A stretch of 64,000 nt of DNA from an uncultured Ruminococcus sp. (GTDB lineage: Bacteria; Bacillota; Clostridia; Oscillospirales; CAG-272), in NCBI GenBank assembly GCA_964430105.1, contig CAYSEF010000005.1, forward strand, positions 183 through 64,182, given 5' to 3'. This document shows, one piece after another, positions 2 through 30,821 of this stretch (within the stretch, counting starts at the first letter, position 1; each line of letters opens with the position of its first letter). Made by a program: the position numbers and the translations under genes. Under the pieces are notes generated by a model. That model was not told the origin of the DNA. It worked only from the letters and a program-made list of their open reading frames with translations, and did not search any database.

Positions 2-127
2 ATGCCCTACACACTCGCTAAGGATACAAGAACAGGCTACGAAGACGGTAATATTCAGGCAGTCATGGATGGCGAGATTGACGGATTCATCAACGCTTAT
101 CTCAAAATGAATGCTGCGAATAACTAA
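2..127 (+). CDS. 3' end of an upstream gene (partial, product not identified)
   Basis: The frame is open from the left edge and ends at TAA 125-127 (...[22 protein letters not shown]). It is too short to name. Confidence 0.4.
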
Positions 128-129
128 TC

Positions 130-909
130 ATGAAAAAAGAAGAATCCAGATTTGCGAATAGTACATTATTCGAGGGAATGACCTCTATCCGTGCCGTACT
201 GAACGCAATGGACAATGGAATCAGCGATAGAAAGCTTCTGCGAATACTCGTTGACGAGGATAAGCTCAAGGCTCGCTCTAAAGAACTCGGTTGGTTAAAA
301 CACAAATCTGAGGAATACGGGTTTGTAATTGAAATTCTGACCTCAGGTGAAATAGACAAGCTCACAACAGGCAATACTCACGGCGGAATCATTGCAGAAT
401 GCTCGGCTCGAACTATTCCTAACCTTTCCGCATCAGAGCTAAAGTCCAATGGATTTTATGTCATGCTCGAAGGTATTGAGGATCCTTATAATTTCGGGTA
501 TGCACTGAGATCTCTTTATGCCTGTGGAGTCGATGGTATTGTTTTGTCTCCTCGAAATTGGATGACAGCTGCGGGTGTCGTTTGCCGTTCTTCTGCCGGA
601 GCCTCTGAAATGCTTCCGCTTTATGAGTCGGAACCGTTGGTATCTGTTGAGTATTTCAAAAAAATGGGCTATAAGGTTCTTTGCGCAGGAATACGCGATT
701 CCGTTTCTTCGTTTGATTGCGATATGCACAATCCTGTTTATCTCATCGTTGGCGGAGAAAAGCGCGGAATTTCAGGTGCACTTCTTAATGTGGCAGATGA
801 AATCGTTCGTATCGACTATGGACGTGAATTTGGCGGAAGCTTGTCTGCTGCATCTGCCGCTACAATGCTCGGCTACGAAGTAATGCGACAAAATAGGGAA
901 ATCAAGTAA
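130..909 (+). CDS. TrmH/SpoU-family RNA 2'-O-methyltransferase (RlmB/YacO-like)
   Basis: 259 aa. It has the SpoU knot-region motifs (LIVGGEKRGIS, C-terminal SLSAASAATMLGYE) and an N-terminal substrate-binding extension. Confidence 0.8.
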   Translation: MKKEESRFANSTLFEGMTSIRAVLNAMDNGISDRKLLRILVDEDKLKARSKELGWLKHKSEEYGFVIEILTSGEIDKLTTGNTHGGIIAECSARTIPNLSASELKSNGFYVMLEGIEDPYNFGYALRSLYACGVDGIVLSPRNWMTAAGVVCRSSAGASEMLPLYESEPLVSVEYFKKMGYKVLCAGIRDSVSSFDCDMHNPVYLIVGGEKRGISGALLNVADEIVRIDYGREFGGSLSAASAATMLGYEVMRQNREIK

Positions 910-950
910 AAACACGCTCGAATAAATTCCAAATAAAACGTAAATTTCAA

Positions 951-1002
951 GAGGCTGTCCACATTTCGGAAATTTTTTCCTTAGTGTAGTAGCCTCTTTT
1001 TT
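951..1002 (+). repeat. conserved-loop hairpin terminator element, copy 1
   Basis: GAGGCTGTCCAC-ATTTCGGAAATTTTTTCCTTAG-TGTAGTAGCCTC followed by a T-run, directly after the methylase stop. Same family as 22325, 24600, 31905, 42243 and 55835. Confidence 0.75.
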
Positions 1003-1078
1003 ATACCACCCAATCCTTTACAAAATTGCAGTATCATGATATAATAGTTGTGATAATATTCATAAATCACAGGAGAAC

Positions 1079-1288
1079 ATGATGAATATTCCAAAAATCC
1101 TAGTCGGTGACAAGCTTGAACTGAAGAAAAAGCATCCTTGCGGTACCTCAGTATTCTCGGTACTTCGAATAGGCAGTGACATCCGTATAGTCTGTGATGG
1201 CTGTGGACGCGATATGGTAATTCCTCGTGAGAAGCTTGAACGTTCTATTAAAAAAATTCATCATGAGGAAGTAAAAACCAATGAATAA
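1079..1288 (+). CDS. DUF951-family small protein
   Basis: 69 aa with the typical KKHPCG...CxxCG pattern. The stop overlaps the next start (ATGAATAA). Confidence 0.7.
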   Translation: MMNIPKILVGDKLELKKKHPCGTSVFSVLRIGSDIRIVCDGCGRDMVIPREKLERSIKKIHHEEVKTNE

Positions 1289-4121
1289 AGCATTATCCCC
1301 TATAAAAAAACACTCATTTCAGTTGAGTGCCAACGCCTCTACCTTGCTTATGTGCTTCGGACTGCCATTTATCGGAATGGTGCTGATATACTACTTTCTT
1401 CGTGTATGGCCGGCAGGTGAAAATTCTGTCCTTGTGCTTGACCTGAATGCACAGTATATCTACTACTTTGAACAGCTCCGAGATATCTTAACCACAGGCG
1501 AATCAATCATATATTCCTTTGAACGTGCGCTGGGCGGTGAATTTATGGGAATTTTCGCATATTATCTCTCCAGCCCGTTTTCACTTATCGTCGCACTATT
1601 TCCCAAAGAAAATATTACAGAAGCCCTTTATTTCATTTTAATTCTGAAAACCGGCTTTTGCGGTCTGACATTCGGATATTATCTAACAAAAACTCGCAAT
1701 ATTCAGCCGATTTACCGTGTTATTTTTTCGACATTATACGCTCTTTGTTCGTATGTTGTAGTAATGCAGCATAATGTCATGTGGATCGATAATGTCATTG
1801 CTTTTCCGCTTATACTTCTTGCAGTGGATGAGCTTATCAAGCATGGCAAGTTCAAAATGTACGTTCTCGCACTTGTCTATTCCGTTTTTTCAAACTTCTA
1901 TATCGGATACATGACCTGTCTTTTCATTCTGATTTGGTTTTTTGTTCGATATTTTATGCTCTCACCCACAGAAAGAAACCCTCATGGCGAAAGTAAACAT
2001 TTTATAAAAGCACTTACCAGAATAGCTATATGGTCTATTCTTGCAGTTCTGATTTGTGCGATTATAATTTTCCCAACATATTATTCTCTTACTTTTGGTA
2101 AGCTTGAATTCAGCGATCCGAAATACGAACCCGAACAGCTCTTCGAATTCGCTGATCTTCTGACCAAAACCTTCTTCGGCTCATACGACACTGTTCGTCC
2201 GTCAGGTATGCCATTCATCTATTGTGGTACTTTTGCACTTGTTTTGGCACCGCTTTATTTCTTTGCAGACGATATTCCCACCAGAAAAAAAGTTGGTATG
2301 GCTGTAATGATGCTTATTCTTATTATTAGCTTCAATTTCAGTATTGCGGATATCGTATGGCACGGTATGCAACGTCCTAACTGGCTCAATGCACGATTCG
2401 CATATATGTTTGTCGGACTTGAGCTTATAATGGCAGCAGATGCATTTGTAAATCTACCAAAAATCGGAAGAAAAACCGTGACCTGCTCCGCTGTTTTGTG
2501 GTGTGCACTTCTTGTTATTCTTTCGAAGATAGGCTACGATCATCTGCACGATTTCATGTCTGTATGGCCCGGAATCCTCTGCTTTGTACTCATAGCATCG
2601 ATACTTCCATCATGCATACGCTCGATGAAAGACCCCAATTCATGCAGAATGGCTGCTACTGCGCTGTTGTTTGTAATTTTCCTTGAAGCTGTTGGCAACG
2701 GTGTAGTAATGCTCTATAGCCTTGATGATGATGTGGCTTACTCAAAACGCAGTTCATATCGTCAAATGGTCGATACATACACCCCCGCAGTAGAAACATT
2801 TCTTGACAAAGACAGCGATGATTTTTATCGTGCCGAAAAGCTTGTACACCGCAAGAAAAACGATAATTTTGCACTCGATCTCAACGGAATGACAAACTCG
2901 ACTTCCACATTAAATGCTCGTGCGATAGCTTTGCTTCAGCAATTCGGCTACGCATCGCAGTCACATTGGTCAATGTACGCAGGTGCAACTGCCGTAACCG
3001 ATGCTCTGTTTGGAATTAAATATGTCATAGCAGATGAGACCGATAACAAGGATGTAATGGAATATATCCACGATCTGTACGACCTTTACGCCTCCACCGA
3101 CAAGCACCTCGATGTTTATGAAAATCCGTATTCTCTTTCTATCGCATATTCTGTGAATGAAAAAACTCTCAAATACGACCTGCCTGCGCCTATTTCGGAA
3201 GATGAAGAAAAGCCACAGGAAAAGGATTATGTCGATCCATTCACATATATGAACGAGCTTCTTTCGGCAATGACCGGTGAGAAAATCAAGGTTTGGAAAC
3301 GTGTTGATGTTGCAGAATCAAGTGAACAAGGCGTTAAAGAGATCCATGTAACAGGTCACCGTTCATACGAACAAAACGATACAGCTACTGCAAAGCTGTC
3401 GTGGACTCTCGATGTTGAATCAAGCGACAAGATATATGTCTATTTCCCGTCAAAATATCCACGCAAAGCTGAGCTTAACGTAAACGGCAAGGATATTGGT
3501 GACTATTTCGACGGCGAAGATTTTTCTATCCGTGAAATCGGCTCATTTGAGGAGGGCGAAAAAGTCAAGGTCAGCCTTTACTTAGATGAAGAAAAGATAT
3601 ATATCCGCTCCGGCTGTTCTTTCTTCTGGTATTTCGATGAATCAGCTTTTCTTGAAGCTATTGCAATGTTAAAGGATGGCACAATGGATGCACATTCCGA
3701 CAGTGACGACCACATTTGGGGTACTATCAATGTTCCAAGTGGCGACAGCGTTGTATTCACTACTATTCCATACGATGCAGGCTGGAAGGTAACAGTTGAT
3801 GGAATAGAAGTTGAAACTGTTCCTGTGCTGAATGACACACTGCTTGCATTTAATATAACCGAAGGCGAGCATGAGCTTGAATTCAAATATGAGCCTGACT
3901 GCATAAAATACGGCTTGCTTATCTCAGGTGCCGGTCTACTCATATTTGCTGCTGCATGGGTCATTGATTCTGTTATGTCAAAAAAGAAAAAGCAGGCTGT
4001 TGCTGATATTTCGGAAATCAAAGATTCTCATAACGAAGACGAAGAAATCGATATTCCTGATCAAATTGTAGCTGACGATAATACAAAACACATAGACGAT
4101 GAGGTAATAACAGATGATTGA
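1281..4121 (+). CDS. YfhO-family polytopic membrane protein (glycosyltransferase-like)
   Basis: 946 aa. Many N-terminal TM helices, a large extracytoplasmic C-terminal domain, a final TM and an acidic tail, as in YfhO proteins. Confidence 0.75.
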   Translation: MNKALSPIKKHSFQLSANASTLLMCFGLPFIGMVLIYYFLRVWPAGENSVLVLDLNAQYIYYFEQLRDILTTGESIIYSFERALGGEFMGIFAYYLSSPFSLIVALFPKENITEALYFILILKTGFCGLTFGYYLTKTRNIQPIYRVIFSTLYALCSYVVVMQHNVMWIDNVIAFPLILLAVDELIKHGKFKMYVLALVYSVFSNFYIGYMTCLFILIWFFVRYFMLSPTERNPHGESKHFIKALTRIAIWSILAVLICAIIIFPTYYSLTFGKLEFSDPKYEPEQLFEFADLLTKTFFGSYDTVRPSGMPFIYCGTFALVLAPLYFFADDIPTRKKVGMAVMMLILIISFNFSIADIVWHGMQRPNWLNARFAYMFVGLELIMAADAFVNLPKIGRKTVTCSAVLWCALLVILSKIGYDHLHDFMSVWPGILCFVLIASILPSCIRSMKDPNSCRMAATALLFVIFLEAVGNGVVMLYSLDDDVAYSKRSSYRQMVDTYTPAVETFLDKDSDDFYRAEKLVHRKKNDNFALDLNGMTNSTSTLNARAIALLQQFGYASQSHWSMYAGATAVTDALFGIKYVIADETDNKDVMEYIHDLYDLYASTDKHLDVYENPYSLSIAYSVNEKTLKYDLPAPISEDEEKPQEKDYVDPFTYMNELLSAMTGEKIKVWKRVDVAESSEQGVKEIHVTGHRSYEQNDTATAKLSWTLDVESSDKIYVYFPSKYPRKAELNVNGKDIGDYFDGEDFSIREIGSFEEGEKVKVSLYLDEEKIYIRSGCSFFWYFDESAFLEAIAMLKDGTMDAHSDSDDHIWGTINVPSGDSVVFTTIPYDAGWKVTVDGIEVETVPVLNDTLLAFNITEGEHELEFKYEPDCIKYGLLISGAGLLIFAAAWVIDSVMSKKKKQAVADISEIKDSHNEDEEIDIPDQIVADDNTKHIDDEVITDD

Positions 4122-4770
4122 AACATTATATGGACAAATTTTTGAATCCGATGCAACCACCTGCACTATCATTCTCGAATGTTGTGGAGTAGGTTATCAC
4201 GTCACTGTGACCGCAAATACCTTCTCTCACCTGCCAACTCCCAAGCACTCCCCGGACGGAATTTCACTTTTAAGCGAACCTGTACGCATATACACTCATA
4301 TGGCGGTCAGAGAGGATGCTGTTGAGCTTTTCGGATTTTACTCACGCGAGGAATTGAATATGTTTAAGCTTCTCATCAGCGTGTCCGGCATTGGTCCAAA
4401 GGCAGCTATGTCCATATTGTCACTGTTCACACCTCGTGGTCTGGCATCAGCTGTTGAAGCAGGCGATGTAAAATCAATATCTCGTGCTCCCGGTGTCGGT
4501 GCAAAGACTGCCGCAAGAGTTGCACTTGAATTAAAGGACAAGATTCCAAAGATATTCCCGTATTTCACAAGCACATCCGATGACGGAAATGAAATTTTGA
4601 AAACAGCACCCTCTGCCCAAAATTCAAACAAGCTCTCAGATGTGCGTGATGCGTTGACTGTGCTTGGTTACTCCAGATCTGAAATCGCAGCAGTAATGAA
4701 AAACGTCGATCTTGATGGCGAAGTTGAAGATATCATAAAATCCGCACTCACTGTGCTAATGAAGAACTGA
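4114..4770 (+). CDS. ruvA: Holliday junction branch migration complex subunit RuvA
   Basis: 218 aa with HhH motifs (ISVSGIGPKAAMSILS, APGVGAKTAARVALELK). The start overlaps the yfhO stop (ATGATTGA). Confidence 0.9.
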   Translation: MIETLYGQIFESDATTCTIILECCGVGYHVTVTANTFSHLPTPKHSPDGISLLSEPVRIYTHMAVREDAVELFGFYSREELNMFKLLISVSGIGPKAAMSILSLFTPRGLASAVEAGDVKSISRAPGVGAKTAARVALELKDKIPKIFPYFTSTSDDGNEILKTAPSAQNSNKLSDVRDALTVLGYSRSEIAAVMKNVDLDGEVEDIIKSALTVLMKN

Positions 4771-4850
4771 TACTGCATTATATCAAAGTGCATTAGGTTT
4801 CTTCTAAAAAGAAAGAATTCGATAAATTTAGTTTAATGTGTAGGAGAATT

Positions 4851-5915
4851 ATGGACTCTAACGAATTTGATTTTGAAAACAGAATAATGTCGTCAAGTTA
4901 TGTTGCTGAGGATCAGGAAAACGAAAATTCCCTTAGACCGCATACGCTCGACGAGTACATAGGTCAGGAAAAAGCCAAGGAAAACCTGAAAATTCTCCTG
5001 GAGGCCGCCAAGCTTCGTGGAGAATGTATGGATCATGTGCTTCTCTATGGCCCGCCCGGACTTGGTAAAACTACGCTTTCCGCAATTCTCGCAAACGAAA
5101 TGGGCGTGAATCTGCACATAACCTCAGGTCCGGCTATCGAAAAAAAAGGCGATCTTGCGGCACTTCTCACGAATCTCGGTGAAGGTGATGTGCTTTTTAT
5201 CGATGAGATACACCGCATTTCCCGTACACTTGAAGAAATTCTCTACCCTGCGATGGAGGACTTTGCATTCGACCTCATACTTGGTAAAGGGCCGGCAGCA
5301 CGAAGCATTCATATGCAGCTTGCACACTTCACTCTAATAGGAGCAACAACTCGTGCAGGTCAGCTCTCAAAACCATTGCGTGACCGTTTTGGCGTTCAGA
5401 TGAGACTCGAGCTGTACACGCCTGAGGAGCTTGCAACCATCGTACACCGTTCAGCCTCCATTTTGGATGTTCCGATAGATGATGATGCGGCTATAGAGAT
5501 AGCATCACGTTCACGTGGCACTCCAAGAATTGCAAACAGACTTCTTAAAAGAGTTCGAGATTATGCGCAAGTCAAAGGAAACGGTCGGATAACACTGCCT
5601 ATTGCTAAAGACTCACTTGAAATGCTTGAAATAGATGAGCTTGGACTTGACAATACAGACAGACGAATGCTCGAAACTATAATCCGCTTCTACAACGGAG
5701 GCCCTGTCGGACTTGAAGCACTGGCAGCAACTATCGGAGAAGAAGCTGTTACGCTTGAGGATGTGTGCGAACCTTATCTTCTACAGATAGGATTTTTGGC
5801 TCGCACTCTGCGTGGACGCATGGTAACAAAGCTTGGATATGATCATCTTGGTATACCATATCCCAATAAAATTGACACACGAGATGATGGTCAAATTTCG
5901 CTTGTCGAAGAATGA
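4851..5915 (+). CDS. ruvB: Holliday junction DNA helicase RuvB
   Basis: Walker [15 protein letters not shown], sensor motifs. Start chosen at ATG 4851, preceded by AGGAGA (4842-4847); the ORF track begins 15 nt earlier. Confidence 0.92.
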
Positions 5916-5940
5916 ATTTAATACAGCTTAATTTATAACA

Positions 5941-5997
5941 AAAAATTGCGTGTCGCATTACATTTAAGAATGTAATTTGCAACACGCAATTTTTTTA
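5941..5997. terminator. bidirectional two-tier hairpin terminator between ruvB and the UDG gene
   Basis: Outer stem ATTGCGTGT/ACACGCAAT, inner stem ATTACATT/AATGTAAT, flanked by an A-run and a T-run. Confidence 0.75.
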
Positions 5998-5998
5998 T

Positions 5999-6553
5999 TT
6001 ACATTACGCCATCAAGGTACGCTTTTATACGTTTCATATCTCGCAGCATATCTTCTTTTTTGGAAGCATCTCTCAAAAGTGCGGCAGGATGATACACTGC
6101 TGTCATCGCAAATGCGCCTTTTTTCACGATATTTCCATGTTCTCTTGTAATTTTATAGTCAGGTCTAATTAACCTTGCTGCGGATATTCTGCCTAAGCAC
6201 ACGATGATTTTCGGACGGATAAGCTTAACCTGCTCACGAAGAAATCCGATACAAGCATCTCCTTCTTCCGGCAATGGATCACGGTTATGTGGCGGACGAC
6301 ATTTGAGGATATTCGCAATATAGACACTCTCACGCTCTATCCCTACTGCTGTCAAATATTTATCGAAAAGCTGTCCTGCTGCACCGACAAACGGTATTCC
6401 GGTAGCATCTTCCCTCTCACCGGGGGCTTCTCCAACAAACATAAGATCAGCTGAACGATCACCTGTGCCAAACACAAGATTTGTTCTTGTTTTGTACAGC
6501 TGACAGCCCTGACAAACTGCACATTTCTCGTAAAGCTCGTTCCAATCCATCAT
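5999..6553 (-). CDS. uracil-DNA glycosylase, family 4
   Basis: 184 aa with GEAPGEREDATGIPFVGAAGQLF and the HPAALLR motif, plus N-terminal Cys residues typical of family 4. Confidence 0.85.
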   Translation of the reverse strand: MMDWNELYEKCAVCQGCQLYKTRTNLVFGTGDRSADLMFVGEAPGEREDATGIPFVGAAGQLFDKYLTAVGIERESVYIANILKCRPPHNRDPLPEEGDACIGFLREQVKLIRPKIIVCLGRISAARLIRPDYKITREHGNIVKKGAFAMTAVYHPAALLRDASKKEDMLRDMKRIKAYLDGVM

Positions 6554-6575
6554 CGCACCTCTATCGTGTGTTGGT

Positions 6576-7046
6576 TTAATTTCTATTTGCCTTCTCTGCG
6601 TCTATCGCAAGTACAAGCATCAAGGCGTGCAAAGAATCAGTAGGAGATTCTACATCGATACAATATGTATCTGTGAAATTTAACAGCTCCTTCGACACTG
6701 TCGCAACGAGTTTATCATTCTTATCGAATATCTCATAATCCCATTCAAAAAAGTCACCGCTAACATTCCAACCAAGGTAATCGATATTAAACGACGGTTT
6801 GAAGAATGAAAATTCCTTCGATATCTCTCCTGCGTAATTATCACCTATGTATATTTCAAATTTCGGCAGGAAGGTGAGAATTTCCTGTTGCAAAGTCGCA
6901 ATGTGAATACCATCTTCGCTATAGACATTTAGTCTTTTTCCAAGCGACAGCTCACCTTTTACAACAAAAACCGTATTTCCCTCTTCGTCATAGATATCGT
7001 ATGAATCAAACCAGGAAAATAAGCGTTGTTTGAGGAGCAGTTTCAT
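6576..7046 (-). CDS. LURP-one-related / YxjI (tubby C-terminal-like) family protein
   Basis: 156 aa. The N-terminus (LLKQRLFSWFDSYDIYDEEGN) and overall pattern match this family. Confidence 0.65.
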   Translation of the reverse strand: MKLLLKQRLFSWFDSYDIYDEEGNTVFVVKGELSLGKRLNVYSEDGIHIATLQQEILTFLPKFEIYIGDNYAGEISKEFSFFKPSFNIDYLGWNVSGDFFEWDYEIFDKNDKLVATVSKELLNFTDTYCIDVESPTDSLHALMLVLAIDAEKANRN

Positions 7047-7071
7047 AGATCATTTGCCTCCGTCAGTAAAT

Positions 7072-8475
7072 TCAATCCGATTTTACATCAGAAATAACAC
7101 ATTTCGCCCAGAAACCAGATTTTAACATAGGCACACCAATGCATAATTTGATTATATCAGAGAACTGTACGATCAAGTACACCCATAAAATGCCAAGACC
7201 GGTAAATCTGCAAAAGATGAGCGAAAGCATCGCCGGAACTATCCATGTATAAACACAGTCGAACAGGAAGGTAATACCGGTTTTTCCACCCGAACGTATT
7301 GTGAAATAAATAACATGTATTGTTGCATGAACCGGTAATGACAGACCTGCCACTGTAAGGCACTGAGTTGCAAGCTCACGAACTTCAGGTTCTACGTTAT
7401 AGAGAAGCGGAACGAACGGTGCAACCACTACAAACAGCAATGCGATAATCACATGAGAAGCAAATGTAACGAAGATGAGCTTATTATCGACATCTATCGC
7501 ACCCTCACGATCACCTGCACCGAGCTTTTGTCCAACCATGATAGATACTACAGAACCCATTGCGAACATTATAACACAGAAAAGATTCCATGCTGTAGTC
7601 GTAATATTTGTTGCAGCGATAACTACTATACCACGGCTTGCATAGTTACTGTTAATGAAGGTTTGACCGAGTGACCATAAAATCTCGTTCATCAAAAGCG
7701 GAGTACCGGTAATAGCGATCTTCTTTACAAGATTCATAGGCACATGCAAGCTTTTATAAGCACCTTCAACGAAGCGGAATTTATCCTTTTTACGGTGTGT
7801 AACGACCAAAACAAGAGCTAATTCCACAAATCTTGATAACACAGTAGCTACAGCCGCACCGGATACTCCAAGACGCGGAAAGCCGAGCTTACCATGGATA
7901 AGCAGATAATTGAAGATGAGATTGACCAATATAGCGATGATACCACCGACCATAGGAATAACAGTTTCGCCTGTTTCACGCAAGGTTCCTGCATAAACCT
8001 GTACTATTGCGAACGGTACAAGTCCGATAAGAGCAATTTTGAAATATGCTCTTGCCTCTGTTATGGTAGCTGTTATCTCATCGGGAGTATTGTTCTCGTT
8101 TTGCAAAAACAGCATAACAAGGTCATCACCGAACACAGCAAAAATAACTATTGCCACAACAGCAGTCACGACTGCGAAGATCATCTTAAAGCGGAATGTA
8201 TCTCGCATACCCCGCCAATCACGAACTCCGAAAAACTGCGTTCCAAATATAGAAGCACCTGAAAGTCCGCCGAATATGGCAAGATTGAAGATAAAAATGA
8301 GCTGATTTACGACAGACACCGCGCTCATAGAGTAAGTTCCAAGTGCACCAACCATGATGTTATCGAGCAGGTTAATAAAATTTGAAATTCCCTGCTGAAT
8401 TACAAGAGGTACGGCAAGCGCAACAAGGGTACGATAAAACTGACGGTCGCCGATGTATTTTTGTTTGAATGACAT
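7072..8475 (-). CDS. MATE-family efflux transporter
   Basis: 467 aa, about 12 predicted TM helices, MatE-like N-terminus (RQFYRTLVALAVPLVIQQGISNFINLLDNIMVG). Confidence 0.85.
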   Translation of the reverse strand: MSFKQKYIGDRQFYRTLVALAVPLVIQQGISNFINLLDNIMVGALGTYSMSAVSVVNQLIFIFNLAIFGGLSGASIFGTQFFGVRDWRGMRDTFRFKMIFAVVTAVVAIVIFAVFGDDLVMLFLQNENNTPDEITATITEARAYFKIALIGLVPFAIVQVYAGTLRETGETVIPMVGGIIAILVNLIFNYLLIHGKLGFPRLGVSGAAVATVLSRFVELALVLVVTHRKKDKFRFVEGAYKSLHVPMNLVKKIAITGTPLLMNEILWSLGQTFINSNYASRGIVVIAATNITTTAWNLFCVIMFAMGSVVSIMVGQKLGAGDREGAIDVDNKLIFVTFASHVIIALLFVVVAPFVPLLYNVEPEVRELATQCLTVAGLSLPVHATIHVIYFTIRSGGKTGITFLFDCVYTWIVPAMLSLIFCRFTGLGILWVYLIVQFSDIIKLCIGVPMLKSGFWAKCVISDVKSD

Positions 8476-26219: not shown

Positions 26220-26372
26220 GATTCTCCTCCATTCTGATGACTGTAAGCATCAGAGCATATACCTAATTATACCATATATTCACAAAGCGTGCAATCATAA
26301 CGCAAAACTTTAATTTACAAAAAAACAAAAACGGAACAGGGGTATTTCCCATTCCGTTTTTTATTTTTTCTA

Positions 26373-27185
26373 TTATTTGTTGTCGATTGTGACATTGAGG
26401 TGGTTGTACGGTATTTCTATCTCGAACTTGTCGAAGGCTTTCTTTACATCCTCCCACATATCGAAATACACAGTCCAATAGTTCGCAGATTCACACCAAA
26501 TACGAAGCTTGATTGTAACAGCGGATTCACCATGAGCAGCTACAAAAACCTCCGGTGCAGGCTCTTTTAAGATAAGGTCGTTCATAGAGGAGGTTGCAAG
26601 AAGAACCTTACGAACGAGATCAATATCGGTGTCATAAGCCACATTGAAATCGAAATCGATACGACGAGTTTTTTCAGTAGAAAGGTTATTGATAGTGGAA
26701 TTTGCAAGAGTAGAATTAGGTACTGCAATATCCTGATTATCGCCTGTTGTGATTCTTGTGTAGTAAATTCCAATTTCAGTGACAACTCCGCTGACATCGC
26801 CGGCAATGATAAAGTCTCCTACATGGAACGGCTTGCAGAACATAATGATAATACCACTTGCGATATTTGAAAGTCCGCCTTGAAGTGCAAGACCTATTGC
26901 CAAGCCACACGAGCCAAGTACAGCTACAACAGAAGATTCAGGTACACCAAGTACAATCACAGCTGTCAATACAACAATAAGCTTCAATCCGATTCCGACA
27001 AAATTAGTTACAAAATTTTGTACATTTATGTCTGCCTTCTGAAATAACTTAGTTTTGGTAACAGCCTTTGTCAATGCTTTAACAACAGCAAAACCAACTG
27101 CAATTATCAGCAATGCCAAAATCAGGTTCAGCACAAACGGAACAACATAAGCGTTCACAAAGCTGGAAATCCACACCATATCCAT
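26373..27185 (-). CDS. small-conductance mechanosensitive channel (MscS family)
   Basis: TM helices followed by PFHVGDFI...GVVTEIGIYYTRITTGDNQDIAVPNS. ATG 27185 is preceded by GGAG. Confidence 0.85.
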   Translation of the reverse strand: MDMVWISSFVNAYVVPFVLNLILALLIIAVGFAVVKALTKAVTKTKLFQKADINVQNFVTNFVGIGLKLIVVLTAVIVLGVPESSVVAVLGSCGLAIGLALQGGLSNIASGIIIMFCKPFHVGDFIIAGDVSGVVTEIGIYYTRITTGDNQDIAVPNSTLANSTINNLSTEKTRRIDFDFNVAYDTDIDLVRKVLLATSSMNDLILKEPAPEVFVAAHGESAVTIKLRIWCESANYWTVYFDMWEDVKKAFDKFEIEIPYNHLNVTIDNK

Positions 27186-27296
27186 AATATACTCCTTAAA
27201 AATAAGATAACGCATTTATTATACTATATGGATGCAGGAAATTCAACCTGATTTTCGAGAAATTTGTGAAACTTCTATTAAGCAAAGTATACTGAA

Positions 27297-29588
27297 TTAC
27301 TTTGAGTTTTTGCGCAATTCAACTCGTCTTATCTTACCGCTGATAGTCTTAGGAAGTTCGGGCAAAAATTCAACGATTCTGGGATACTTATACGGTGCGG
27401 TATGCTCCTTAACGTAATTCTGTATCTCCTTGACCAATTCGGGTGAGCCTTCCTTACCGGGAACAAGCACAATAGATGCCTTTACGACCTGTCCGCGGAT
27501 TTCATCAGGTGCAGCTGTAATAGCACATTCCAAAACATACGGAAGTTCCATGATAACAGATTCGATTTCAAAGGGACCTATGCGATAGCCCGATGACTTA
27601 ATAACATCATCAACTCGTCCGACATACCAGAAATATCCATCTTCATCACGCCATGCGGTATCGCAGGTATGATAGTAACCGTCATGCCAAGCCTCTTTTG
27701 TAGCTTCTTCATTACCATAATAACCACTGAACAAACCGGCAGGAACACCGTTTTTAGTGCTGATAACGATTTCACCTGTTTCACCGACTTCGCAGGATTT
27801 TCCGTCAGGTGTAAGAATATCTACATCGTAAAGTGGTGATGGATGTCCCATGGAGCCCGGCTTAGGTGTATCACCGACAAAGTTACCTATTACAAGTGTT
27901 GTTTCTGTCTGACCAAAGCCTTCCATAAGCGACAAGCCTGTGTACTCCTTAAACTTGTAGAATACCTCAGGGTTGAGTGCTTCACCTGCTATTGTAGCGT
28001 GCTTAAGAGATGAGAGATCGTAATTTTCGATACCGGCCTTTATGAAGAAACGGAACATTGTAGGCGGTGCACAGAATGTTGTAATCTGATATTTAGCGAA
28101 CAGCGGAAGGAGATCAGCCGCATCGAATTTTTCAAAATCATATGCAAAAACACATCCTTCGCACAGCCACTGACCATAGAGCTTACCCCAAAGAGCTTTT
28201 CCCCAGCCTGTATCGGAAATTGTAAAATGGATACCGTTCGGATCAGCATTGTGCCAATATCTGGCAGTGATATAGTGACCGAGCGCATATCTGTAGCTCT
28301 GAGTAGCGAGCTTAGGATAGCCTGTTGTACCACTTGTGAACATCATATACATGATATCTTCACCACATGGAGTATTTTCACGACGTTCAAATACAGGAGA
28401 GAAGCTCATAAATTCGTCATTGAACGAATGCCAGTTATCCTTATGACCATTGACAATGATCTTTGTGATATCCTGCGGAACGAGCTTTTCTGCAAGTTCA
28501 GCCTGATGAGCTGTATCTCCATCCGCTGTACAAATGATAGCGGTTACATTTGCTGCTTTATAGCGATATTCAAAATCATGTTCAACGAGCATATGTGTTG
28601 CAGGAATAGCAACCGCACCAAGCTTATGCAGACCCATCATAGCTACCCAGAACTGCCAATGTCTTTTGAGAACGATCATTACCTTATCGCCTGTACTGAT
28701 TCCGAGAGATTCAAAATAGTTAGCGGCACGGCTTGACAATTCGGAGATATCCTTAAATGATAAGCGAGTTTCTTTCTTATTAACATCAAGATGAAGAAGT
28801 GCAGTCTTATCAGGAGTTTTAGCGGCAATAGCATCTACTGTATCGAATGCAAAATTATATTTGTCTTCGTTATGGAATTTGATTTCCTTAAGCTTGCCGT
28901 TTTCCTCGATACATTCGATGAATCGCATAGCAACCGGATCCTCGGGAAGCGGTGCAAGCTTGTCTTGAACAGTCGGCTCAACTTTTTCTTCTTCCTGTTC
29001 GGGATAATCATAAGCTGCTCCGCCTGCTGAAATTACGATAGCGAGAATATCACAGTCTGCACCGTCGTATGCGATCATACCGTGTGGCTTTGAGCTGTCA
29101 TAATAAATCGAGTCACCGGGTTCAAGAATTTCTGTATGTCCATCAATAACTACTTTAAGCTTACCTGATAGGATATAGTCGTATTCCTGACCTTCATGTC
29201 TGCTGAGCTTGATAGGCTGATTCTGTTCTTCTTCGGAATACTTTACAGTTACATGGAACGGTTCAGCGATCTTATTTTTGAAAAGCGGTGCAAGGTTATT
29301 GTAGCGGAAGCCTTTACGACGCGCAATAGGAAGACCGCCTCCGGCTCTTACAATACCGTATTCAGCAAGAGTTGGGCTGGAACCTTTGAGAAGGTCAGTG
29401 GTGTCAACGCCAAGACGAGCCGCGCACTTATAAATAAAACTGAAAGAAAAGTCGGCTTCACCTGCTTCAAGCTCACGATAAGCTTCCAGGGTAACACCTG
29501 TACAAGATGCCATTTCTTCTTCGGAAATTTCGCAAATCAAACGAGATTCACGAATTCTGTCCGCAACTTCTTTAAGGATTTTTTCCAT
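27297..29588 (-). CDS. fusion protein: XRE-type HTH + cupin domain + AMP-forming acyl-CoA synthetase (MACS/ACSM-like)
   Basis: 763 aa. Residues 1-70 are HTH_XRE-like. Roughly 115-190 is a cupin (GQEYDYILSG...GDSIYYDSSKPHG). Roughly 230-763 is an adenylate-forming enzyme (MFTSGTTGYPK, GFGQTET, GYYHTCD, GRVDDVIKSSGYRIGPFEIE, PKTISGKIRR). Confidence 0.8.
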   Translation of the reverse strand: MEKILKEVADRIRESRLICEISEEEMASCTGVTLEAYRELEAGEADFSFSFIYKCAARLGVDTTDLLKGSSPTLAEYGIVRAGGGLPIARRKGFRYNNLAPLFKNKIAEPFHVTVKYSEEEQNQPIKLSRHEGQEYDYILSGKLKVVIDGHTEILEPGDSIYYDSSKPHGMIAYDGADCDILAIVISAGGAAYDYPEQEEEKVEPTVQDKLAPLPEDPVAMRFIECIEENGKLKEIKFHNEDKYNFAFDTVDAIAAKTPDKTALLHLDVNKKETRLSFKDISELSSRAANYFESLGISTGDKVMIVLKRHWQFWVAMMGLHKLGAVAIPATHMLVEHDFEYRYKAANVTAIICTADGDTAHQAELAEKLVPQDITKIIVNGHKDNWHSFNDEFMSFSPVFERRENTPCGEDIMYMMFTSGTTGYPKLATQSYRYALGHYITARYWHNADPNGIHFTISDTGWGKALWGKLYGQWLCEGCVFAYDFEKFDAADLLPLFAKYQITTFCAPPTMFRFFIKAGIENYDLSSLKHATIAGEALNPEVFYKFKEYTGLSLMEGFGQTETTLVIGNFVGDTPKPGSMGHPSPLYDVDILTPDGKSCEVGETGEIVISTKNGVPAGLFSGYYGNEEATKEAWHDGYYHTCDTAWRDEDGYFWYVGRVDDVIKSSGYRIGPFEIESVIMELPYVLECAITAAPDEIRGQVVKASIVLVPGKEGSPELVKEIQNYVKEHTAPYKYPRIVEFLPELPKTISGKIRRVELRKNSK

Positions 29589-29630
29589 AATGTATAGCCT
29601 TTCTGATATATTTTTCGTGTTTTGATATGT

Positions 29631-29939
29631 AAAAAAACAAAAAAGTCCGTCTCATTTTGAGACGAACTTGTGATTTTCAAATTCGCGGTACCACTCAAAT
29701 TGCATATTACTATGCCACTCTGCGGACTCAAGCAAGTCCTGTGCCATCACGCAGCACCAGCGGGGAACCATTACTCAGCGTGAATTTACAGACAAAACAC
29801 ACTTTTCCTTTCCCGACTCGGAAGTGATTGGATATCTGTCTACCGTGCTCGCATTCCACCCGCGCGAACTCTCTGTAGCGGTGCATGACCGAAATCCGTC
29901 TTCGTCACAGTCTTTAGTTACCGTATAGGTTGTTTAATT
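29631..29939 (-). promoter_or_regulatory. T-box riboswitch leader (apparent specifier AUC, Ile) with intrinsic terminator
   Basis: The minus strand carries a GA/K-turn motif, AG bay AGAGAG, distal loop GGTGGAA and T-box sequence AATTTGAGTGGTACCGCGAA (complement of 29682-29701). The terminator AAGTTCGTCTC/GAGACGGACTT plus T-run competes with an antiterminator carrying the UGGU bulge. Confidence 0.85.
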
Positions 29940-29945
29940 TTCGTT

Positions 29946-29975
29946 ATTATACCACAGTTAGCAGTCGTTTGTCAA
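29946..29975 (-). promoter_or_regulatory. sigma-70-type promoter of the T-box leader
   Basis: Minus strand TTGACA (29975-29970), 18-nt spacer with TG, TATAAT (29951-29946). Confidence 0.6.
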
Positions 29976-30125
29976 GAATATTTTCTCAAAAATCTGCATA
30001 AAATTCAAAACTTACCCATTTTTGTGCTGAATTTTATGCAAATTTTTCAATTATTATTGAAATAACTGTATATTTGTGCTATACTGACTACAAGTTAATA
30101 TTCACAAATCACAGGAGAAGATCAC

Positions 30126-30821
30126 ATGAAATACAAAACCGAATTGCATTGTCACAGCAAAGATGCCAGCGGATGTGCACATGAATCTGCTGAAGGTATC
30201 GTCGAGAAGTATAAAAAATACGGCTACACCACTATTTGTCTGACGAACCACTTCACTCCATTCCCGGACATGGAGAATCCTGAAAAATGGGCTGCTAATG
30301 TTGAGCACAAGTATGCAGCTTACGAAAAGCTCAAAGCTCTTGCGGGAGATGATCTGAATATACTTTTCGGACTTGAATTCAGATTCGTACAGAATTCAAA
30401 CGACTATCTTGTTTTCGGATTTGACAAAGATTATCTCATAAATCATGGTTGTGATATTCTGAAAATGGGAGTTCACAGATTCACCGAAATGGCACGTCAA
30501 GACGGTATCATAACGATTCAAGCGCACCCGTTCCGCTATGGTATGACTACAACACCGCCGGATCATGTAGACGGTATCGAAATTTTCAATGGTCATCCGG
30601 GACATAATTCTAACAACGACATTGCTGAAGCATGGGCAAAGAAATACGGCAAGATTATTACTTCCGGCACCGATCACCACGACCCACATCACATTCCCGA
30701 CGGTGGTATTATTACCGATGTACCGATAACCAGCGTTGAGCAGTTTGTAAATATTCTCAAGTCCGGTGAATACGAGCTTTACAGAGATTTCACCTTCGGT
30801 AAGGGAAACAGCGAATTATAA
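30126..30821 (+). CDS. PHP-domain metal-dependent phosphoesterase
   Basis: 231 aa with N-terminal ELHCHSKDASGCA (HxH), later HP... and DHHD metal-ligand motifs. Confidence 0.7.
   Translation: MKYKTELHCHSKDASGCAHESAEGIVEKYKKYGYTTICLTNHFTPFPDMENPEKWAANVEHKYAAYEKLKALAGDDLNILFGLEFRFVQNSNDYLVFGFDKDYLINHGCDILKMGVHRFTEMARQDGIITIQAHPFRYGMTTTPPDHVDGIEIFNGHPGHNSNNDIAEAWAKKYGKIITSGTDHHDPHHIPDGGIITDVPITSVEQFVNILKSGEYELYRDFTFGKGNSEL

Follow-up and report, generated by a model that had tools for sequence, protein, structure and literature searches.

T-box leaders (Rfam family RF00230) are RNA regulators of which the leader of ileS in Firmicutes is an example. They are recognized by a Stem I with a K-turn, an AG bay and a distal loop, by Stems II, IIA/B and III, and by the T-box sequence, which presents a UGGN bulge and competes with a terminator. 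In the survey of Wels et al. (2008) their targets were tRNA ligases (62%), biosynthesis (18%), transport (12%) and genes of unknown function (8%), and neither CoA nor acyl was ever mentioned. The leader described here lies on the minus strand of a 64,000-nucleotide (nt) stretch of DNA from an uncultured Ruminococcus sp. (contig CAYSEF010000005.1, positions 183 to 64,182; hereafter the window). It shares all of these features, together with an AUC specifier. It differs from the described members in its target, which is an acyl-coenzyme A (CoA) synthetase fusion rather than an aminoacyl-tRNA synthetase, a canonical ilv gene or a transporter. We think it probable that the leader attenuates transcription in response to tRNA-Ile (anticodon GAU) and so controls a short branched-chain acyl-CoA synthetase which serves the synthesis of isoleucine from 2-methylbutyrate. 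The T-box mechanism and the use of AUC as an isoleucine specifier were already known; the target class and its implication appear to be new.

The requirement of rumen anaerobes, cellulolytic ruminococci among them, for isobutyrate, 2-methylbutyrate and isovalerate, which they convert to valine, isoleucine and leucine, has been recognized since the 1960s. Precursors in rumen fermentation are 2-methylbutyrate for isoleucine, isobutyrate for valine and isovalerate for leucine, each being carboxylated and aminated (PMC7356843, with reference to Robinson & Allison 1969, Allison & Peel 1971 and Allison et al. 1962). Rumen methanogens likewise make isoleucine and leucine from branched acids (PMC10658910). 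Such a route needs activation of the acid, a ferredoxin-dependent 2-oxoacid synthase and a transaminase. In the literature searched it is described physiologically, with no activating enzyme and no regulation assigned to it. Nor did that search find a T-box tied to an acyl-CoA synthetase or to the use of branched acids, although a listing without discussion in older surveys or in the tables of TBDB is possible.

Two characterized enzymes activate acids of this kind. MacsMa of Methanosarcina acetivorans prefers 2-methylbutyrate, and its binding pocket is marked by a glycine in place of the tryptophan of Acs and by an alternate tryptophan, Trp259 (PMC10455477). MbcS of Staphylococcus aureus activates 2-methylbutyrate and isobutyrate, and isovalerate barely (PMC10026030); its established role is the priming of branched-chain fatty acids (PMC10026030, PMC11167679).

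Architecture of the leader

The leader is preceded by a sigma-70 type promoter, TTGACA (29975..29970) and TATAAT (29951..29946) separated by 18 nt, with 12 of 12 matches and a TG extension. When promoter-like sites were scored across a 5.4-kb region, this was the best of them. Some 350 nt separate it from the start codon at 29588. All coordinates are positions in the window, and features on the minus strand are given from the higher number to the lower. A permissive, E-value-based Rfam scan of the 501 nt at 29550..30050 matched RF00230 to 29917..29655 over model positions 1-219, with 63.5 bits and E=1.5e-13. The match is full-length and not truncated, the next-best Rfam matches in the same segment being microRNA models with E>0.02, and the assignment to the T-box family is confirmed by the RF00230 model, chance being ruled out. 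An earlier note on this DNA, made from its letters alone, had predicted the leader, the promoter, the K-turn/GA motif, the AG bay, the distal loop, a UGGU bulge, and a terminator with a T-run whose 5' arm could instead pair with the T-box sequence. Each of these is present where it was predicted.

Stem I (29912..29815) is defined by the RF00230 alignment and by a covariance model built for this purpose (R1), which scores it at 99.1 bits. Its basal helix pairs 29912..29900 with 29824..29815 and contains the GA/K-turn motif, the strands reading GAC-UGU-GA-C-GAAG and CUUC-C-GA-GUC. Above it lies a small specifier loop, with AC (29899..29898) on the 5' side and A-AUC-A (29829..29825) on the 3' side, and then a second helix (29897..29891 with 29836..29830). 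The AG bay, AGAGAG, occupies 29874..29869 and leads into the distal helix and loop (29869..29847), the loop itself being GCGGGUGGAAU (29863..29853). The Stem II columns of RF00230 fall on 29814..29763, with an AGUA element within GAGUAAUGG, and the Stem IIA/B columns on 29762..29741.

Between the IIA/B region and Stem III lies a hairpin of 6 base pairs with a 4-nt loop, GGACUU-GCUU-GAGUCC (29739..29724), which is an insertion relative to RF00230 and absent from the Rfam consensus. It is kept in nearly all related leaders, with changes on both sides of the stem (GGGCUU/GAGCCY, GGAAUU/GAUUCC, GGAGUU/GACUCU), and it sets this leader apart from described members of the family. The earlier note had taken this hairpin for Stem III. 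The hairpin is real and conserved, but in the RF00230 alignment Stem III is the next one, GCAUA-GUAA-UAUGC at 29715..29702.

The T-box sequence AAUUUGAGUGGUACCGCGAA (29701..29682) forms part of an antiterminator (29699..29656) with a 7-nt bulge, UGGUACC, at 29693..29687. Folded alone, the segment 29701..29656 adopts this structure, bulge included, at -11.4 kcal/mol (z = -2.7). The UGGU of the bulge could pair with ACCA, in which a tRNA having A73 ends; UGGU is present in all T-box copies of the homologous loci, which fits such a tRNA. The intrinsic terminator, AAGUUCGUCUC-AAAAU-GAGACGGACUU, has 12 pairs at 29669..29643 and continues through a U-run to 29631. It folds at -15.2 kcal/mol (z = -5.8), and none of 200 shuffled sequences was as stable. 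Antiterminator and terminator have the segment 29669..29656 in common, the former using it in its 3' strand and the latter in its 5' arm, so that the two folds are mutually exclusive. Since the terminator is the more stable of the two, it would be expected to prevail unless the antiterminator is stabilized, as is the standard arrangement in T-boxes.

Conservation of the leader in related genomes

Relatives of the downstream protein numbered more than 594 in a scan of one genome per species, and the best 80 loci (58-81% identity) were analysed. They belong to rumen and gut Oscillospiraceae, Ruminococcus (including R. flavefaciens), Acutalibacteraceae and Christensenellaceae, and cultured strains among the carriers are R. 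flavefaciens SAb67 (L030) and Neglectibacter timonensis SN17 (L017). The T-box motif UGGUACCGCG stands upstream of the ligase gene in 64 of these 80 loci, and several of the remaining 16 have truncated upstream sequence. In eight homologous loci RF00230 matched twelve leaders at 55-107 bits, of which two reached 93 bits, the gathering score in the Rfam release used.

The energy of Stem I is not exceptional when compared with shuffled sequences (z = +1.35), and support for this stem must therefore come from covariation between sequences. R1 was seeded with eight close relatives and a hand-annotated structure and was searched against the window and the 80 loci. It found 78 copies of Stem I, exactly one of them in the window. 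In the resulting alignment, which is fitted to the model itself and so favours the structure in its pairing statistics, 88.8% of cells form standard pairs. Column shuffles give 67.4%, none of 500 reaching the observed value, and displacing the pairing partners by 1-3 columns leaves 47.4% at the most, a wide margin in spite of that bias. Compensatory changes are found in 21 of the 24 base pairs, and minimum-energy folds of the individual sequences mostly agree with the structure. An alignment of 52 Stem I sequences by MAFFT, folded with RNAalifold, recovered the distal helix alone, because the more variable helices were misaligned.

These comparisons bear on the suggestion that the leader is a decayed T-box which no longer regulates, the gene being constitutive or controlled by protein only. 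A score of 63.5 bits, below the gathering score, and a Stem I no more stable than its shuffles would suit such a relic. All functional elements are nevertheless intact, the terminator is strong, and the same layout persists, with compensatory changes, in loci whose proteins share no more than 58-81% identity with the window protein. The low scores are explained by deletions and insertions common to the whole subfamily, which affect the specifier loop and the segment preceding Stem III, and not by random decay. Decay is thus a highly improbable explanation.

The specifier codon

The specifier loop is reduced to 2 nt on the 5' side (AC, or AG in leaders of the valine class described below) and 5 nt on the 3' side. 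The earlier note had flagged the loop as shorter than expected; this is real, and typical of the subfamily. The 3' side is always 5 nt long in the R1 alignment, and the codon is its central triplet, at 29828..29826 in the window. Among the 78 Stem I copies this column reads AUC in 55, GUA in 20, GUC in two and CUC in one. The AUC class includes L017 (loci are cited by number where needed), whose Stem I was misaligned by R1 and whose specifier was taken from a regular-expression match instead. Within the AUC class the preceding base is U, C or A, while the following base is A in 26 leaders, the window leader having A, C in 26, G in two and U in one. Rfam alignments of the orthologous leaders also place AUC at the specifier position; the AUC-A that the earlier note had proposed to look for in orthologues is therefore constant in its codon and not in the base that follows. 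In TBDB the specifier is taken as positions 2-4 counted from the bulge's 3' end, which agrees with the placement here, and isoleucine T-boxes usually have AUC (PMC7778990).

A different triplet in so short a loop (AAU for Asn, UCA for Ser, CAA for Gln or CAC for His), and hence a different tRNA, was considered. The loop is indeed unusually short and without an S-turn, the Rfam alignment of the window leader has a gap inside the codon region, and in some leaders a pyrimidine follows AUC. However, over the 78 copies only the AUC frame is conserved, its flanking bases varying (U, C or A before; A, C, G or U after). In the paralogue leaders the same column reads the synonymous valine codons GUA and GUC, as a codon reading predicts, whilst out of this frame the stop codons UAG and UAA would be read. 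Furthermore, the specifier changes as a unit with the amino-acid class, AUC, GUA/GUC and CUC occupying one column, and its class matches both the protein clade and an enzyme residue (see below). Another triplet is accordingly extremely improbable. The conserved frame and the agreement with TBDB indicate that AUC at 29828..29826, which the earlier note had given provisionally, is correct. On comparative sequence evidence the question is settled: the specifier is AUC, for isoleucine.

The controlled enzyme

The controlled gene (27297..29588, minus strand) encodes a protein of 763 amino acids in which Pfam recognizes an XRE-type helix-turn-helix (HTH) domain, HTH_3 (residues 12-66, a weak match of 21.5 bits against a cut-off of 23), Cupin_2 (residues 127-184), AMP-binding (residues 253-624, E=4e-63) and AMP-binding_C (residues 674-752, E=4e-20). 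The XRE-cupin-acyl-CoA synthetase fusion read from the sequence by the earlier note is thus borne out. Public databases name its homologues only 'AMP-binding protein', 'cupin domain-containing protein' or 'acetyl-CoA synthetase'.

Among NCBIfam models MbcS (NF047394) fits best, at 439 bits. The closest solved structure is that of MacsMa (PDB 3ETC), with E=1.5e-187 over residues 239-760. By sequence alignment, the pocket segments FGQTET and (K/R)YW of MacsMa are identical or conserved in the window protein, which thus has both pocket features of MacsMa: FGQTET contains the glycine standing in for the Acs tryptophan, and YW contains the alternate one. MacsMa differs in being archaeal, in having no HTH-cupin module at its N-terminus and in that no T-box has been described for it; a substrate for the window enzyme can be proposed from its sequence. 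MbcS likewise lacks the N-terminal fusion, and it feeds the priming of membrane fatty acids in an aerobe-capable coccus. To judge from these sequence relationships, the window gene probably encodes a 2-methylbutyrate--CoA ligase that carries a regulator-like module.

The N-terminal 235 residues resemble a stand-alone regulator of the HTH_3 family with a cupin domain (1Y9Q, E=1.7e-4 over residues 7-174). This resemblance raises the alternative that the fusion is chiefly a transcription regulator, its HTH binding DNA and its cupin and ligase parts sensing a branched acid or the acyl-adenylate, with the T-box at the top of the cascade. HTH_3 or HTH_19 together with Cupin_2 make up the N-terminal 190 residues both in the window protein and in that of L045, and recur in the Pfam lists of homologues. 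The module is also retained in a clade of these fusions that has no T-box, and one of the two residues separating the isoleucine and valine classes of the protein lies within the HTH. On the other hand, the ligase domain is well conserved, its match to 3ETC, an active enzyme, having E=1.5e-187 with both pocket-related segments kept, the HTH_3 match of the window protein falls under the Pfam cut-off, and no conserved operator was found. A chiefly regulatory role appears distinctly unlikely.

The valine paralogue and the oxidoreductase

In 15 loci the ligase gene is one of a tandem pair whose order is constant: an AUC T-box with its HTH-cupin-ligase gene is followed by a GUA or GUC T-box with a second ligase gene (L045, at 59..8015; L036, L046, L047, L053, L055, L061, L066, L067, L070, L072, L074, L075, L077 and L024). 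The proteins encoded behind GUA leaders form one clade, and those without a T-box another. In L045 the valine-controlled ligase gene (2971..5265) is directly followed by a gene for a CbiA/ParA-like P-loop protein and then by the alpha and beta genes of a 2-oxoacid:ferredoxin oxidoreductase (Pfam POR_N and PFOR_II in alpha, TPP_enzyme_C in beta). A homologue of the alpha subunit is found at the same place after the valine paralogue in 8 loci with enough downstream sequence. These genes suggest a link to the rumen route of reductive carboxylation; the carriers of the T-box ligases are rumen and gut Oscillospirales, Ruminococcus flavefaciens among them.

Only two alignment columns separate the isoleucine and valine classes of the ligase, K54R, in the HTH, and G463A. 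Residue 463 (codon at about 28202..28200, minus strand, in the window) tracks the specifier perfectly: among all copies whose specifier could be read, the segment is DTGW-G-K in 54 of 54 proteins behind AUC and DTGW-A-K in 19 of 19 behind GUA or GUC. This residue may correspond to the position after the conserved, acyl-contacting tryptophan of the acetyl-CoA synthetase pocket, GW(V/I)TG. In that case it would make sense for the enzyme with the smaller substrate to have the bulkier side chain here.

Relatives that activate 2-methylbutyrate, together with the oxidoreductase operon of the valine paralogue, lead us to read the window gene as the first step of an alternative route to isoleucine. 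The earlier note had set the gene apart from biosynthetic targets. This is true of its annotation but, in view of the same evidence, probably not of its biology.

The chief competitor of this reading keeps the T-box and the chemistry but sends 2-methylbutyryl-CoA mainly into the priming of anteiso branched-chain fatty acids, as MbcS does in S. aureus. Shortage of isoleucine would remove the usual source of the primer, and salvage of the free acid would therefore be switched on. The established role of MbcS, the best NCBIfam model, agrees with this, as does the fact that no oxidoreductase adjoins the gene in the window. Ruminococci are reported, in Allison's papers of 1962, to have put branched acids into lipids as well as into amino acids. 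What tells against lipid priming is that the valine paralogue shares its operon with a 2-oxoacid:ferredoxin oxidoreductase, which is needed for the synthesis of amino acids and not of lipids, and that a sensor of tRNA charging reports the demand of protein synthesis and not the state of the membrane. Lipid priming as the main fate is therefore unlikely, albeit the two uses are not mutually exclusive and can coexist.

A model for isoleucine-dependent control

Under the preferred reading, synthesis of isoleucine from 2-methylbutyrate, the system would work as follows. When isoleucine is plentiful, charged tRNA-Ile could not stabilize the antiterminator, the terminator at 29669..29643 would form and transcription would stop before the gene. 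When isoleucine is scarce, the anticodon of uncharged tRNA-Ile would pair with AUC in the small specifier loop, whilst its elbow would dock on the platform formed by the AG bay and the distal loop. The free ACCA end of the tRNA would pair with the UGGU bulge, holding the antiterminator closed, and the 763-residue protein would be made. Its AMP-forming ligase domain would convert 2-methylbutyrate from gut or rumen fluid to 2-methylbutyryl-CoA. A 2-oxoacid:ferredoxin oxidoreductase acting in the synthase direction would carboxylate this reductively to 2-oxo-3-methylvalerate, from which a transaminase would form isoleucine.

A number of observations weigh against this picture. On the side of the RNA, the scan of the full window at gathering thresholds returned no Rfam match, the leader scoring 63.5 bits where 93 are required. 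The S-turn (AGUA...GAA) is absent from the specifier loop of the window leader and of its relatives, and with so minimal a loop the presentation of the codon must differ from that in solved T-box complexes. The conserved purine 3' of the codon is not kept in the subfamily either, 26 of the 55 AUC leaders having C there. On the side of the enzyme, the MbcS equivalog model requires 850 bits and the window protein reaches 439, far below it, which makes this protein a relative and not an equivalog, and the proposed route does not account for the HTH-cupin module. Furthermore, the 64-kb window has no gene for an oxidoreductase, a transaminase or a second ligase; what ties the system to reductive carboxylation is thus drawn from other genomes, where the linked gene is the valine paralogue and not the isoleucine gene. 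The same HTH-cupin-ligase fusion also exists in a clade, mostly of Ruminococcus, which has no T-box but only a strong promoter and a short leader (L026, L032, L037, L044, L050, L051, L058, L059, L060, L062, L069 and L071), and the metagenome-assembled genome RGIG6826 carries both a copy with a T-box (L040) and one of these (L044). The analysis establishes the anatomy of the leader, its codon, its conservation, the relatives of the enzyme and the valine paralogue with its oxidoreductase operon, whereas the substrate, the direction of flux and the tRNA-dependence of read-through are inferred.

A possible leucine counterpart

One of the 80 loci, L027, carries a divergent T-box with the specifier CUC, for leucine (2531..2278, minus strand; gene start at 2175). 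Its target is a different fusion, of a xylose-isomerase-like TIM barrel with an AMP-binding enzyme. Among 72 metagenomic relatives of this fusion with enough upstream sequence, 11 have the T-box motif, and the leucine branch is therefore a minority arrangement. The loci with a leucine T-box are L027, L125, L128-L132, L134, L137, L139 and L153. A regular expression had returned the triplets ATG and GTA for the leaders of the TIM-barrel fusion, which the Rfam alignments ruled out: CUC is the specifier in 10 of 10 aligned leucine leaders, namely that of L027 and nine of the 11. These leaders have a specifier loop with the canonical S-turn.

The TIM-barrel/AMP-binding fusion may represent the isovalerate/leucine counterpart of the HTH-cupin ligases. 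Isoleucine and valine specifiers, and none for leucine, accompany the MbcS/Macs-like family, which mirrors the use of 2-methylbutyrate and isobutyrate, and hardly of isovalerate, by MbcS. The leucine specifier accordingly stands before another ligase family.

Genes and repeats around the leader

The window contains no further T-box and no tRNA gene. The earlier note had named the ligase fusion as the only gene downstream of the leader. The fusion is indeed there, but a gene for an MscS-type mechanosensitive channel (27215..26373, minus strand) begins 81 nt further on. No terminator is predicted in the 81-nt gap, and the ligase gene may thus not be the only one controlled, the MscS-type gene being a possible second gene of the transcript; a terminator is predicted after it (26361..26327, minus strand). 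The gap also contains a promoter-like site with 10 of 12 matches (27246..27218). The MscS-type neighbour is not conserved, MscS-like genes lying near the ligase gene inconsistently, in L001, L005 and L011. An MscL gene is found about 4.4 kb beyond the MscS-type gene (11411..11875 of L081, which is the same contig).

A different neighbour is seen in L034, L035, L068 and L080, where a gene for a 480-residue ACT-like and metallo-beta-lactamase protein directly follows the isoleucine-controlled ligase gene, with a gap of -3 to +10 nt. It is probably co-transcribed with the ligase gene.

On the other side of the leader, an inverted repeat occupies 29977..30058, with the ligase promoter on one side and, on the other, a divergent promoter-like site belonging to a PHP-domain gene at 30126. 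Its 31-nt arms are 81% complementary and separated by 20 nt, and it gave rise to spurious microRNA matches in Rfam. The possibility that the HTH of the protein itself uses this repeat as an operator is not supported, as the close relatives L001, L002, L004 and L006 lack it ahead of the gene.

Implications for branched-acid use in Oscillospirales

The minimal-loop subfamily to which this leader belongs lies mostly below the Rfam default threshold. The window leader, with a clear E-value and a score below the gathering score, would be skipped by default annotation, and such leaders are therefore probably under-annotated in gut and rumen genomes. Their recognition adds acyl-CoA synthetases as a class of T-box targets. 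It also suggests a built-in specificity code, in which the specifier codon covaries with a single residue of the enzyme.

It is attractive to consider a wider scheme, albeit one that we think unlikely, in which Oscillospirales possess a tRNA-gated salvage of isoleucine, valine and leucine. Each T-box would drive its own ligase, feeding a ferredoxin-dependent 2-oxoacid synthase, and the HTH-cupin ligases for isoleucine and valine would be DNA-binding 'trigger enzymes' that report the availability of branched acids. If this were true, one gene would integrate the demand for an amino acid, through RNA, with the supply of its precursor, through protein.

The need of rumen bacteria for branched-chain volatile fatty acids also has a practical side, these 'isoacids' being used as feed supplements for ruminants. 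For this sixty-year-old nutritional observation the present analysis proposes which gene may carry out the activation and how it may be regulated, namely through the sensing of uncharged tRNA.

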